Part shown: positions 31,252 to 41,419 of the stretch, one piece after another
Layout of the letters: every line of letters begins with the position of its first letter
How positions within the stretch are numbered: position 1 is the stretch's first letter
Sequence record: SRR20825019_2383
DNA: 42,786 nt
Reading direction: 5' to 3' (one strand)
Program-made: the position numbers and the translations under genes
The notes under the pieces: model-generated
The model's database searches: none
The model's input: only the letters and a program-made list of their open reading frames with translations
Told to the model about the DNA's origin: nothing

Positions 31252-31280
31252 TTGACAGCGGCTTATAAACCCGATAAATT
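31252..31280 (+). promoter_or_regulatory. sigma70 promoter of the cold-shock gene, implying a long 5' UTR
   Basis: TTGACA-N17-TAAATT, about 150 nt upstream of the ATG, as in cspA-type leaders. Confidence 0.7.
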
Positions 31281-31430
31281 GAAATTAGCTTGAAAGTTGA
31301 TCTGAATATTTATTTTTCATTTCGATGCATTACCTTAAGTAGCTCGTCCTGTTTATTAATAAGTACTTCTGCACACCTTCCAGCTACACCGCCTGTTATG
31401 GCATGTTTTTATTAGTAAATAGGATTATCT

Positions 31431-31637
31431 ATGTCTACATCTACCGGTACTGTAAAGTGGTTTAACGAAACTAAAGGTTACGGCTTTATCGAACAAGAAA
31501 GCGGCCCGGATGTTTTCGCTCACTTCAGCCAAATCAAAGGCGATGGTTTCAGAACGCTTAAAGAAGGCCAACGTGTTGAGTTCACCGTTAGCCAGGGTGC
31601 CAAAGGCCCGCAAGCTGAGAACATCACTGCCCTGTAA
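31431..31637 (+). CDS. csp: Cold-shock protein, CspA family
   Basis: GTVKWFN, RNP1 KGYGFI, RNP2 VFAHF, KGPQAEN. Confidence 0.97.
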
Positions 31638-31659
31638 TACTTTAATTACGGTCAGATTT

Positions 31660-31688
31660 AAAAAGCCCCGTTTTGACGGGGCTTTTTT
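31660..31688. terminator. Bidirectional terminator
   Basis: AAAAAGCCCCGT-tttg-ACGGGGCTTTTTT. Confidence 0.88.
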
Positions 31689-32440
31689 TATGCTGTGCCC
31701 GCCTCAATTTCAATCACTTTACGGGCGAAGCTTTCATACTCCTGCCATAAGTCTTTTGCCATGGTGTCCGGAAACAGATGACACTCGCCCTTTTTCAATG
31801 CTTCAATAATCCCGTCCGCTACCAGAGCCGGCGGTTCAGCGACATCCATCAATCCGGCGCTACTGGCCATATCCGTGGCAATTGGTCCCGGATGCACGCT
31901 CAGCACCACTGTATTCTGCTCTGCCATTTCATGACGTAGCGCCTGGGTAATTGAATAGGCTGCTGCCTTTGAGGCCGCATAGGTGGCAAAAGCCGGAAAT
32001 GAACGGAGTGAGGCGATTGAATTCAATTGTACAAATGCGCCACCACCATTGGCTTTAAGCACCGGTGCAAAGGCCTGTGCTATACGCAGTAAGCCAGCCA
32101 CATTGATATCCATCTGGGTTTCCAGCGCATCAATTGATTCCGGCTGCAACGGACTGGCATTTTTAAGTATGCCGGCATTGTTAACCACAATATCAACATC
32201 CTGAGCATTAGCAGCGGCAGAGATCACGGTGCTGGGTCTGCTCAAATCGATATGAATGGCGGTGACTTTGTCTGCGTATTGCTGTTCCAAATCGGCAACC
32301 GAGTCGAGATTACGCACAGCCAGGTAAACTTTACGAGCGCCGCGTTGCAATAAGGTTTCGACAATCGCTCTGCCAATGCCCCGGTTCGCCCCGGTGACCA
32401 GAGCCACTTTATAGTTAATATCGAATGGCGTATTCATCAA
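31688..32440 (-). CDS. Short-chain dehydrogenase/reductase
   Basis: TGANRGIG, NNAG, YAASK, HPGPIAT. Confidence 0.92.
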   Translation of the reverse strand: MMNTPFDINYKVALVTGANRGIGRAIVETLLQRGARKVYLAVRNLDSVADLEQQYADKVTAIHIDLSRPSTVISAAANAQDVDIVVNNAGILKNASPLQPESIDALETQMDINVAGLLRIAQAFAPVLKANGGGAFVQLNSIASLRSFPAFATYAASKAAAYSITQALRHEMAEQNTVVLSVHPGPIATDMASSAGLMDVAEPPALVADGIIEALKKGECHLFPDTMAKDLWQEYESFARKVIEIEAGTA

Positions 32441-38737: not shown

Positions 38738-38805
38738 TCATTAACACCTGTTTTCAACATTAACACTTGACGAAGCTAAAAGTCGTAAATAATATACACC
38801 TTATA

Positions 38806-38828
38806 AATATGCATTTCACATACCTATT
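38806..38828. promoter_or_regulatory. NsrR box upstream of hmp
   Basis: AATATGCATTT-C-ACATACCTATT in 11-1-11 form; the left half matches AANATGCATTT. Confidence 0.7.
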
Positions 38829-38842
38829 TAGGAGGCCGCATA

Positions 38843-40051
38843 ATGAGTCCTGAAACCATCGCTACCATCAAAGCCACTGTACCTGTTCTGCAAGCTCATG
38901 GTGAAGCGCTTACCCGCCTTTTTTATCAGCGGATGTTTGAAAATAATCCTGAGGTCAAGCCGTTCTTCAACCAGGCTCACCAGAAAGCAGGCAGTCAGCA
39001 AAAAGCGCTCGCCGGGGCGATCTGTGCTTATGCTGAAAATATTGATAACCCCACCGCACTGGCAGCCGCGGTCGAATTGATTGCACAAAAACATGCCTCT
39101 CTGGGTATCAGGGCAGAACATTACCCGATTGTCGGCCAGAACCTGCTGGCAGCGATTAAAGAATTACTGGGTGATGCAGCCACTGACGATATCATTAATG
39201 CCTGGGCGGAAGCCTATCAGGTGTTGGCAGATATTTTTATTGAGCGTGAAGCTGAAATATACCGTAGCCATGAGCAGCAACACGGCTGGCGCGGCTTTAA
39301 GCCATTCAAAGTGGTGAAACGTGAAGATAACAGCGCGATCATCAGCTCATTTTATCTGCAACCGGCGGACGCCCAGCCGCTCAATCCACATCAGGCCGGA
39401 CAATACATCAGCATCCGTGTACCCGTAGCTGAAGACAGCGAAACAATGCGGAATTACAGCCTATCGAACAAACCCGGTGAGGATTATTACCGCATCAGCG
39501 TTAAGCGGGAAACCGCTCGCCAGGATGACACGCCGCATGGTGTCGTCTCAAATTTCCTGCATGATCAGCTTGGCGCCGGCGATACCATCTGGGTCGGTCC
39601 GCCCTGTGGCGAATTCACCATTCGCACTCCGGCCGGTAAACCGATGGTGATGATTGCCGGTGGGGTCGGGATTACCCCATTGCTGTCCATGCTGCATGCC
39701 ACTCTGGATAATAATGATGACTCACCGGTCACCTTAATCCAGGCTGCGGCTAACGGTGATGTACTTGCCTTTGCAGATGAAATTGCAGCACTGAAAGACA
39801 GCTATGACAACTTTGACTGGCACATTCGCTATAGTGAGCCGACAGATAATGACCGTTATCTGGGTCGTTTTCATAGTGAAGGTTTGATTGATGAAGACTT
39901 GCTTGCCTCAGTAGATACTGCTGCCGATTTTTACCTGTGTGGCCCCAATGGCATGATGCAACACTGTCATCAGTTGCTGACAAAAGCGGGGGTACCAGCC
40001 GAACAAATTCATCTTGAAGCATTCGGCCCGGCACTTCAGTTGGCAGGCTAA
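38843..40051 (+). CDS. hmp: Flavohemoglobin (NO dioxygenase)
   Basis: Globin (FYQRMF, KHASLG, HYPIVG), RNYSLS, GVVSNFLH, AGGVGITP, FYLCGP, EAFGP. Confidence 0.96.
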   Translation: MSPETIATIKATVPVLQAHGEALTRLFYQRMFENNPEVKPFFNQAHQKAGSQQKALAGAICAYAENIDNPTALAAAVELIAQKHASLGIRAEHYPIVGQNLLAAIKELLGDAATDDIINAWAEAYQVLADIFIEREAEIYRSHEQQHGWRGFKPFKVVKREDNSAIISSFYLQPADAQPLNPHQAGQYISIRVPVAEDSETMRNYSLSNKPGEDYYRISVKRETARQDDTPHGVVSNFLHDQLGAGDTIWVGPPCGEFTIRTPAGKPMVMIAGGVGITPLLSMLHATLDNNDDSPVTLIQAAANGDVLAFADEIAALKDSYDNFDWHIRYSEPTDNDRYLGRFHSEGLIDEDLLASVDTAADFYLCGPNGMMQHCHQLLTKAGVPAEQIHLEAFGPALQLAG

Positions 40052-40082
40052 TTCAGCCTGTGGGGCTCAGGGATGAGCTCAA

Positions 40083-40514
40083 TCAGGCCACATTCAGGCT
40101 TTGCATTAATTTGGATTTATTTTTAACCACATCTTCCAGCGTGTAGCCATCAAGTACATCCAGAAAAGCCCTCTGTGCTTTACGTAATGCACTATAGAGA
40201 ATACAAACATTATCTATCGGACAAGCACACTCGTCACCGAAACACTCCAGCAACTCAAGGTTTTCGGTCTTGCGAATCAATTTGCCGATGTTGATATCGG
40301 CCGGCTGCATTGCCAGTCTCAAACCACCACCACGGCCGCGCTGACTGAGAACGATTTTTTCCTGAACCAGTTTTTGTGCCACTTTTGCCAGGTGATTAGT
40401 GGAAATGCCATAACGCTCGGCAGCATCCTTAACGGTAGCCGGTTTATCGCCGGGATGAATCGCCAAATAAATCAGCAAACGCATCGCGTAATCCGAGTGG
40501 GTGGTGAGCTGCAT
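40083..40514 (-). CDS. nsrR: Rrf2-family NO-sensing repressor
   Basis: MQLTTHSDYAMRLLIYLA, RGRGGGLRL, Cys cluster ECF...CPI...C; adjacent to hmp. Confidence 0.88.
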   Translation of the reverse strand: MQLTTHSDYAMRLLIYLAIHPGDKPATVKDAAERYGISTNHLAKVAQKLVQEKIVLSQRGRGGGLRLAMQPADINIGKLIRKTENLELLECFGDECACPIDNVCILYSALRKAQRAFLDVLDGYTLEDVVKNKSKLMQSLNVA

Positions 40515-40694
40515 TAAAGGACTCCTTTAAACTGCGGTATAGTGTATCCCAATTAAAATCGGTATACTGGATACCGTTTTAATGCTGTTCGCTTTGTTGA
40601 TCTCCATCAAGTTCTGGTAATCACAAGCAAATTTCCCGCCATGAGAAATATAACAAGCCTGAGACAGCGGAAAATTAATAAAATTCTTATATTC

Positions 40695-40765
40695 ACAGTT
40701 CAGACCGGAGAGTGACTCCTCTTCTTCGGTTATTTTTGAGCCTGCCGGACGCAGGCTCTTTTTTT
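40695..40765 (+). ncRNA. Candidate small regulatory RNA (5' end uncertain)
   Basis: Stem-loop with a UGACUCCUC loop, U-rich linker, and strong terminator GAGCCTGC-cggac-GCAGGCTC-T7, with no credible upstream + strand gene. Confidence 0.5.
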
Positions 40766-40873
40766 ATCTATTGCCAGCTAAACGCACATATTCAGGGCAA
40801 GTCGCGCTAATCTGGAGCTTCACGACAAATTCACAGATTCGGTCCAACACTGACTCAAACACAGGAGTCAGTC

Positions 40874-41419
40874 ATGCAACGATATTTCAAATTCGGCCTG
40901 ATTTTATCGGCCTGTCTCAGTCTGTTCGGCTGTCAGAATCTATCCAAACCACCGCTGGATACTGTTGATTATGTCGATATCGAGCGCTTTATGGGCGACT
41001 GGTACGTCATCGCCAACATTCCCACCTTTATAGAAGAGCAGGCGTATAACGCGGTCGAGTCCTACTCCTTAAATGACGACGGGACGATTGCAACCACTTT
41101 TACTTTTCGTGAGGGTAGTTTTGAGGGTGAGCTGAAGACCTATCACCCCAAAGGCTTCGTTGAAAACACTGAAACCAATGCCATCTGGGGTATGCAGTTT
41201 GTCTGGCCGATCAAGGCCGATTACCGCATCGTTTACCTGACTGAGGATTACAGCCAGGTCATTATCGGTCGTAACAAAAGGGACTACGTTTGGATCATGG
41301 CAAGAACACCACAGATTCCGGCTGAAGACTACAAGCACATGCTGAATCTGATTGCTGAGATGGGCTATGACACCAGCAAAGTCCGCAAGGTACCGCAGCA
41401 GTCGTTGGAAAACAGGTAG
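40874..41419 (+). CDS. blc: Outer-membrane lipocalin, Blc family
   Basis: Lipobox LFGC, RFMGDWYVIA, DYRIVYL..DY, YVWIMARTP. Confidence 0.9.
   Translation: MQRYFKFGLILSACLSLFGCQNLSKPPLDTVDYVDIERFMGDWYVIANIPTFIEEQAYNAVESYSLNDDGTIATTFTFREGSFEGELKTYHPKGFVENTETNAIWGMQFVWPIKADYRIVYLTEDYSQVIIGRNKRDYVWIMARTPQIPAEDYKHMLNLIAEMGYDTSKVRKVPQQSLENR

Follow-up and report, generated by a model that had tools for sequence, protein, structure and literature searches.

Several small RNA (sRNA) genes, among them OxyS, GcvB and SgrS, are divergent from the genes of their own regulators (oxyR, gcvA and sgrR, respectively). CU-rich motifs directed against the Shine-Dalgarno (SD) sequence are displayed in hairpin loops by AbcR and the "cuckoo" (CCUCCUCCC) family of the Alphaproteobacteria, and the pyrimidine-rich stretches of RoxS/RsaE are thought to pair with SD regions. 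RoxS/RsaE of Bacillus and Staphylococcus is induced by NO (PMC8139620, PMC4409812), and NarS is an sRNA that originates from the narK 3' UTR and is processed by RNase E (PMC8139620). The sRNAs in Table 1 of a 2021 review (PMC8139620) are under the control of NarL, FNR, RpoS, Rcs, ArcA, Fur and ResDE, and none in that table is under NsrR; for Escherichia coli, an indirect effect of NsrR on sigma-E sRNAs is described (PMC12249550). In the literature covered, there was no described sRNA of Methylophaga and no sRNA under direct NsrR control.

Here we describe an element in the spacer between an nsrR-like gene and a lipocalin gene of a Methylophaga. It is a genuine, lineage-restricted structured RNA element that represents a new family of a known type. 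We estimate at about 0.5 the probability that a noncoding RNA under NsrR control has this element, with an anti-SD seed, as its functional 3' end.

The locus and its neighboring genes

The window (the whole 42,786-nt stretch of DNA analysed) is, judging by its sequence, from a Methylophaga. The Rrf2 protein encoded at 40083-40514 (-), used as query, returned nine Methylophaga loci with 83-94% identity in addition to two unrelated loci, and our comparisons were based on the loci and genomes of relatives in place of the whole genome of the window's own organism. The local gene order is hmp (+), the NsrR-like Rrf2 regulator (-), a 359-nt spacer and blc (+):

38768-38830 (+): hmp promoter TTGACG-17-TAATAT, followed by a canonical NsrR box, TAAATATGCATTTCACATACCTATTTA, at 38804-38830 (PWM score 34.3)
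38843-40051 (+): hmp, encoding an NO-inducible flavohemoprotein (NF009805, 521 bits)
40083-40514 (-): nsrR, encoding an NsrR-like regulator of the Rrf2 family (PF02082, 123 bits)
40874-41419 (+): blc, the lipocalin gene, with its ATG at 40874

Against NCBIfam, the product of 40083-40514 scored 118 bits for NsrR (cut-off 182) and 112 bits for RirA, and it passed the cut-off of the Rrf2 superfamily. The hmp gene has a promoter and NsrR box of its own that are kept in 11/11 hmp upstream regions. The hmp and nsrR genes are convergent and lie 31 nt apart; their gap (40052-40082) contains hairpins, as it does in the relatives, and read-through with mutual antisense overlap of the two genes is plausible because there is no U-run on either strand of this gap.

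Searched with Rfam at the gathering score, the whole window contained only a cspA thermoregulator match (31256-31690, +; 98.7 bits, threshold 78) and a partial tRNA at positions 1-52. Upstream of blc is a conserved block (40783-40840, +) with the direct repeats CTTCAC-N6-ATTCAC, which is present even in relatives that do not have the RNA element, and which looks from its sequence like a response-regulator site or the blc promoter.

Structure of the element

The element consists of two hairpins separated by a short linker, with the following parts:

40704-40730 (+): hairpin 1, a 9-bp stem of ACCGGAGAG (40704-40712) and TTCTTCGGT (40722-40730) with two G-U pairs
40713-40721 (+): 9-nt loop of hairpin 1, TGACTCCTC as DNA and NNACUCCUC as RNA
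40715-40731 (+): the 17-mer ACUCCUCUUCUUCGGUU, comprising loop and 3' arm, a candidate anti-SD seed that is invariant in 10/10 aligned species
40731-40737 (+): U-rich single-stranded linker, UAUUUUU (TATTTTT)
40738-40765 (+): intrinsic terminator detected by terminator scan, an 8-bp GC-rich stem with a 5-nt loop, GAGCCTGC-CGGAC-GCAGGCTC (40738-40758), followed by U7 (40759-40765)

The original prediction had placed the stem, loop, linker, terminator and U7, and also the two ribosome-binding sites considered below, at these same positions, and all were correct when checked against the sequence. The stem of hairpin 1 can be extended to 10-11 bp (40703-40732), and half of the proposed seed sits inside this stem. 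The linker of the relatives reads UUUGCUUU, with the UUU directly 5' of the terminator invariant, and the U-tail is U7-U8 in 9/10 species and U5AUU in the remaining one (L006). Two properties of the Hfq-binding module of sRNAs are a Rho-independent terminator whose U-tail has at least about seven residues and a single-stranded U-rich stretch between an internal hairpin and that terminator; the element has both, the former as the 8-bp stem plus U7. The hfq gene was found in 4/5 relatives' genomes, the exception being the draft genome G001.

A 98-nt stretch containing the element had a two-hairpin minimum free energy (MFE) fold of -28.3 kcal/mol (z -3.5), with 2/200 shuffles as good, and for the 67-nt core the z value was -4.8, with 0/200 shuffles as good. 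The two-hairpin fold was the MFE structure of all five full members that were folded (z -3.7 to -5.2), and in each of these the linker, UAUUUUU or UUUGCUUU, was unpaired. There is no + strand ORF of at least 25 aa ahead of the element in the spacer, in agreement with the original view that no credible + strand gene lies upstream, and no conserved ORF crosses the alignment of the element. Two smaller ORFs, GTG 40712-40810 (32 aa) and ATG 40641-40715 (24 aa), were rejected as they are not conserved.

The element is, to judge from its sequence and that of its homologs, a + strand structured RNA ending in an intrinsic terminator and not a DNA site. In 12 sequences, 97.7% of 216 pair cells were standard base pairs, compared to 44-57% when the partners were slid by 1-3 columns, and for hairpin 1 the proportion of paired cells was 96.7%. 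Wobble-compatible changes in hairpin 1, compensatory changes in the terminator and the one-sided U-run favor this reading. The substitutions in hairpin 1 are one-sided and all of the G-U to A-U type or its reverse, with no double compensatory change; they fit an RNA from the + strand alone, as pairing would be lost in a transcript of the opposite strand and in a palindrome of DNA. In the terminator, whose loop varies from 4 to 9 nt, two stem pairs are changed on both sides (in L006 and L031). The U-run lies 3' of the hairpin on the + strand only. The covariation is modest, since 42/500 shuffles reach the observed count of pairs changed on both sides. The layout of seed, U-rich linker and terminator that had been proposed was supported, in that the element behaves as a structured RNA of the + strand whose CU-rich anti-SD stretch is invariant and whose terminator has a U7 tail.

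The proposal that this RNA is undescribed also withstood an Rfam search, in which no family reached its gathering score at the element. At thresholds up to E = 10, Rfam 15 returned for 40000-41400 only RyhB and a chance match to a snoRNA. Membership in RyhB (RF00057) was rejected: the match had 18 bits against a gathering threshold of 55 (E = 2.6), and its aligned part is mostly terminator.

Conservation and distribution

In an alignment of the spacer from 10 species the element forms an island of conservation, in which ACTCCTCTTCTTCGGTT is invariant, as are TTTGAGC...GGCTC and the T-run that follows. Pairwise comparison of the window and the four distant species (L006-L009) gave an identity of 0.90 in hairpin 1 and 0.69 in the terminator, compared to 0.37 in the 60 nt upstream and 0.29 downstream. 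Despite this turnover of sequence, the loop of hairpin 1 is found 195-208 nt from the nsrR ATG in 10/10 species. The motif is present as a single copy, both in the window and in each of 5/5 genomes searched.

A covariance model built from the 10 aligned sequences gave strong matches (55.9-93.5 bits), one copy per genome, in 10/83 genomes of the family and in 10/90 genomes of the order, and the carriers constitute one Methylophaga subclade that also has the hmp orthologue (at least 60%) in common. Because all 10 carriers belong to one clade, the co-occurrences of element, promoter and box described below are not independent events. Weak matches to the model (24.8-30 bits) in eight further family genomes were rejected; in the five alignments shown the CUCCUC loop is absent, and the matched columns are mainly those of the terminator half. 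A metagenome scan with the invariant 17-mer gave more than 119 exact matches, 80 of whose loci were taken for homology search. The true homologs among these 80 (L141, L146 and L125) are near-identical to known members and add no variation. One other match (L107) is weak, and another (L080) was dismissed as a chance match at the end of a coding region (...TEEEE*) on an archaeal-looking contig.

What follows the element downstream varies: seven loci and the window have blc there, L007 has an HPP-family gene, L009 a spacer of 400 nt and L006 a convergent gene. Since L006 keeps the element without blc, and since blc is 400-800 bp off in L007 and L009, the element is independent of blc. It had been anticipated that the hairpin might turn out to be an attenuator in a blc leader, and this explanation is ruled out by the convergent gene that comes next in L006 and by the HPP gene that stands between element and blc in L007. 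The latter gene, in Methylophaga thiooxydans DMS010 (L007, 1988-2716, -), encodes an HPP-family membrane protein of 242 aa (PF04982, 149 bits) and is inserted 27 nt past the terminator of the element on the same strand; a promoter-like TTCACC-18-TAGAAT overlaps the terminator end. We take HPP proteins to be nitrite transporters.

The most divergent arrangement is that of genome G064 (L031, 1501-1568, +), where a divergent copy of the element is located 100 nt after hmp, and nsrR and blc are lost at the locus. In this copy the terminator stem is kept via a compensatory C-G pair, but the U-run is interrupted, the loop is changed to CUACUC, and hairpin 1 takes up a different fold with CUUCUUC as its loop. 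This single case fits either relaxation of the seed after loss of nsrR or use of the element as an hmp terminator.

A candidate promoter and NsrR box beside nsrR, probably retained from hmp

A 70-110 nt RNA with a promoter just upstream of the hairpin had been expected, and this expectation was not supported: no sigma-70 promoter of at least 8/12 ends within 12 nt of the hairpin in any of 11 sequences. Within 90 nt of the hairpin no sigma-70 pair is positionally conserved, five of the 11 sequences having none of at least 8/12 and the others having scattered ones, and a promoter scan of the window also found none near the hairpin. Motifs upstream of the hairpin that resemble sigma-E (GGAAAAT-N17-TCACA) and sigma-54 promoters by eye are not conserved even among close species. 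No NsrR box lies next to the hairpin, the PWM score of the hairpin-proximal region being -3 or lower in all 10 species. The AT-rich segment at 40673-40691, which had been called weakly Fur-like, was rejected as a Fur box: its best match to the 19-mer Fur consensus is 12/19, a value reached at 94 of 85,536 window positions, and the segment is not conserved in the distant species L006-L009.

A candidate promoter, P(+), was found at the other end of the spacer, adjoining the nsrR start codon and pointing toward the element:

40514-40543 (+): candidate promoter P(+), TTAAAG-18-TATAGT (8/12), under the scan threshold in the window
40555-40581 (palindromic, no strand assigned): NsrR-box-like sequence AAAATCGGTAT-ACTGG-ATACCGTTTTA, 11 nt downstream of the -10
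40550-40765 (+): predicted primary transcript of about 215 nt, from P(+) to the terminator

In each of the four distant species a tool scan identified P(+) as TTGACT-16/17-TATAGT/TATGAT/TACTAT/TATTAT (9-10/12), and in six close species, including that of the window, the -10 TATAGT is intact and the -35 is poor (8-9/12). With an NsrR PWM trained on 11 hmp operators of the same species, the box scored 4.7 in the window, where it is the third best site in 42.8 kb, 13.3-18.5 in L006-L009, where it is the best match, and -4.0 to 11.5 in L001-L005, the lowest value being that of the close relative L001. The predicted box begins 8-11 nt after the -10 (8-9 nt in L006-L009). The arrangement of NsrR regulon members, in which a promoter is overlapped or closely followed by an NsrR operator, is predicted on the strand of the element clearly in L006-L009 and weakly in the window.

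The origin of this pair is suggested by relatives with the classical divergent arrangement of nsrR and hmp, in 6/6 of which TTGACT-17-TACTAT is followed after 7 nt by an NsrR box and then by the SD and hmp. Layout and distance from the nsrR ATG of P(+) and its box are those of the divergent hmp promoter in all six, and on sequence grounds we consider the P(+)/box pair to be a homolog of this classical hmp promoter, which is repressed by NsrR. The carriers would therefore have kept the old hmp promoter and operator, even though hmp itself now lies across nsrR and has a separate promoter and box there. In three relatives (G071, G081 and G077) that have nsrR-blc and no adjacent hmp, the promoter, box and element are jointly missing, and the box PWM score in these relatives without the RNA element is -11 to -16. 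The original prediction had envisaged a link to iron or NO stress: the NO part gains from the NsrR-box promoter by nsrR, which is evidence new to that prediction, and the iron part, with its background-level Fur match, does not stand.

Between the predicted start and the hairpin, 40586-40703 is poorly conserved, excepting an element like a sigma-54 promoter on the opposite strand:

40627-40641 (-): sigma-54-type promoter element TGGC-N7-TTGC, directed toward nsrR

Its tetramers are invariant and its spacer is variable in 13/13 aligned Methylophaga sequences, and the window contains no other match, against a chance expectation of 3.0. The rpoN gene is present in 4/5 relatives, and three of three relatives without the RNA island keep the sigma-54-type element. 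No gene for an enhancer-binding protein was found near nsrR, the 480-aa neighbor being a GGDEF protein. A sigma-54-dependent nsrR would be unusual. If this promoter is real, the RNA from P(+) would overlap it in antisense, together with about 65 nt of nsrR leader, and the NsrR box would lie inside both transcription units. In assembled Logan contigs from four runs that are RNA or possibly RNA, parts of nsrR (40246-40633) and of blc are covered, and 40655-41167 is outside the coverage. In two runs presumed to be RNA, contigs stop at 40628 and 40633, 13-18 nt upstream of the expected sigma-54 start.

Candidate targets and the blc ribosome-binding site

The loop had been proposed to pair with the ribosome-binding sites of both flanking genes, namely AGGAGTCA (40863-40870) ahead of the blc ATG and the AGGAGUC of the nsrR mRNA, which is GACTCCT at 40520-40526 on the + strand. 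This held within the window, where among 41 crude ORF starts nsrR (-16.4 kcal/mol) tied for first and blc (-14.7 kcal/mol) ranked third in pairing with the seed, but not across species, where the values of -8.2 to -20.0 kcal/mol for nsrR and -8.6 to -15.5 kcal/mol for blc come near the background median (-8.4 kcal/mol in the window). The constant pairing across species is AGGAGU only, the generic SD core, with no conserved seed-target pairing beyond it, and the variable bases at loop positions 1-2 show no covariation with the ribosome-binding site of nsrR or blc.

The blc SD is sequestered by a hairpin of its own:

40849-40872 (+): blc 5' UTR hairpin, ACUGACUC/GAGUCAGU (-13.2 kcal/mol, z -3.1)

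In L008 the corresponding hairpin, ACUGGCUUC/GGAGCCAGU, has compensatory changes (-17.4 kcal/mol, z -5.3). The complementarity between the loop and the blc ribosome-binding site is attributable to this arrangement, because the blc SD is locked in its own conserved cis hairpin, which may, on the folding model, act on lipocalin translation as a switch or thermometer.

No conserved target emerged when the genomes of five relatives were searched for matching patterns. The 13-nt full wobble complement was found in five genomes just as the gene's own antisense and at eight scattered sites, and the pattern AGAGGAGT-N3-11-ATG at 26 sites. Of the latter, hpf and an MscS-type channel each recurred in 2/5 genomes and were discarded, as their orthologues have just ordinary SD variants. 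We propose an anti-SD mechanism because the invariant stretch is CU-rich and the 3' module is of the Hfq type.

A model for the element and alternative explanations

We propose that transcription most likely starts at the sigma-70 promoter P(+), which abuts the nsrR start codon and would be the old divergent hmp promoter, left in place as hmp moved across nsrR. With an NsrR operator downstream of P(+), repression by NsrR and induction by NO are expected for this RNA. The transcript of about 215 nt would run antisense over the sigma-54-type nsrR promoter and leader and stop at the terminator (40738-40765), such that the promoter, a fast-evolving stretch of about 150 nt, and the conserved hairpin and terminator would form a single transcription unit. 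Its stable, functional part would be a module of about 66 nt, in which the U-rich linker joins hairpin 1 to the terminator and U-tail. This module may be freed by cleavage at a conserved GUU 5' of hairpin 1; T..TCAC.GTT is nearly invariant ahead of the stem, the GUU is 4-8 nt before hairpin 1, and it presumably resembles an RNase E site. The invariant ACUCCUCUUCUUC is expected to pair with purine-rich SD regions and thereby block translation initiation, with Hfq probably bound at the linker and U-tail.

Different origins and roles for the same element have to be weighed against this model. An independent gene for a short sRNA of 65-75 nt, with its own promoter immediately upstream and not controlled via the NsrR box, is in our judgment unlikely. 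It would use TATATT (40688-40693) or TAAAAT (40679-40684) as its -10 and an unmodelled sigma factor or an activator; it draws on the AT-rich AATAAAATTCTTWTATTCACAGTT, which is kept in six close species (AAAATTC also in L008), on the near-invariance of T..TCAC.GTT before the stem, and on the weakness of P(+) in the window. Promoters of sRNAs are usually conserved, however, and upstream identity among the distant species is 0.37, no -35/-10 pair of at least 8/12 is near the hairpin in the window, L002, L005 or L006 and elsewhere such pairs are at differing positions, and the sigma-E-like and sigma-54-like motifs noted by eye are not conserved. We also think it quite unlikely that the role is in cis only, with antisense RNA from P(+) or read-through from hmp disturbing the sigma-54 promoter and leader of nsrR, the terminator merely insulating blc, hairpin 1 stabilizing the 3' end, and no targets in trans. 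The two promoters do face each other with an overlap of about 65 nt, the distance between the nsrR ATG and the hairpin is constant (loop at 195-208 nt in 10/10 species) and no conserved target was found, but a 17-nt invariant loop and 3' arm would be superfluous for stability or termination, and it is the 5' arm and the terminator stem that vary.

That the element is the 3' end of an hmp read-through transcript crossing nsrR in antisense, whether as an sRNA of the 3'-UTR type or as the hmp terminator, would account for the presence of hmp upstream on the same strand in 11/11 genomes, for the absence of a hairpin-plus-U-run terminator between hmp and nsrR, and for the position of the G064 copy 100 nt after hmp where nsrR and blc are gone. 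Read-through would have to extend 650 nt against nsrR transcription, though, the promoter and NsrR box retained by nsrR are a simpler source, and in G064 the CUCCUC loop and U-run are altered while hmp is intact; we give this origin very little credence. A function at the level of DNA, in which the two inverted repeats are an upstream activator site of the sigma-54 nsrR promoter at about -100/-133 from the predicted start, strikes us as highly improbable. It is consistent with the position of the repeats and their constant spacing relative to TGGC-N7-TTGC. The arms of hairpin 1 are mismatched as DNA (two G.T), however, the terminator arms change with compensation, the spacing shifts by 4-5 bp, the conserved T7 run is left unexplained, and the sigma-54 element persists without the island in 3/3 relatives.

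Significance

If our model is correct in all its parts, a retired hmp promoter drives the first sRNA directly under NsrR, a RoxS-like anti-SD riboregulator whose primary transcript is also antisense to the nsrR leader and its sigma-54 promoter; we put this forward tentatively and regard the whole of it as doubtful. Were it true, a single RNA would both reprogram translation during nitrosative stress and act back on the repressor that controls it, and the case would illustrate how an RNA gene can arise by reuse of an orphaned promoter. Little is documented on how Proteobacteria control their response to nitrosative stress after transcription. An sRNA gated directly by NsrR would give this well-studied regulon a new output, in a group of marine methylotrophs that includes denitrifiers. 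With about 10 species the scope is narrow, and all that goes past structure and conservation is prediction.

Comparison with known systems

RyhB and PrrF have in common with the element a layout of hairpin, U-rich linker and terminator, but unlike these iron sRNAs the element has no Fur box over its promoter. The display of a CU-rich anti-SD motif in a hairpin loop is a likeness to AbcR and the "cuckoo" family, whereas the element is present in a single copy with a single motif and in another lineage. Like OxyS, GcvB and SgrS, the predicted RNA would be head-to-head with the gene of a transcription factor whose operator is in the common spacer. It would differ from all three in overlapping the leader and sigma-54-type promoter of the regulator gene in antisense.

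NarS resembles the element in a possible mode of biogenesis, with a 3' hairpin-plus-terminator module cut from a longer transcript under a regulator that responds to nitrogen oxides. However, the parent of NarS is an mRNA 3' UTR, while that of the element would be noncoding RNA or hmp read-through; the sequences are dissimilar, and processing of the element is a possibility. By analogy, we consider RoxS/RsaE to be the nearest functional counterpart, both being small RNAs that end in a terminator and are induced by NO through a transcription factor, a mode of induction that is predicted for the element. The regulators differ, with activation by ResDE/SrrAB for RoxS/RsaE and predicted repression by NsrR for the element, and phylum and sequence differ as well, the seed of the element being CU-rich (ACUCCUCUUCUUC) where RoxS has C-runs.
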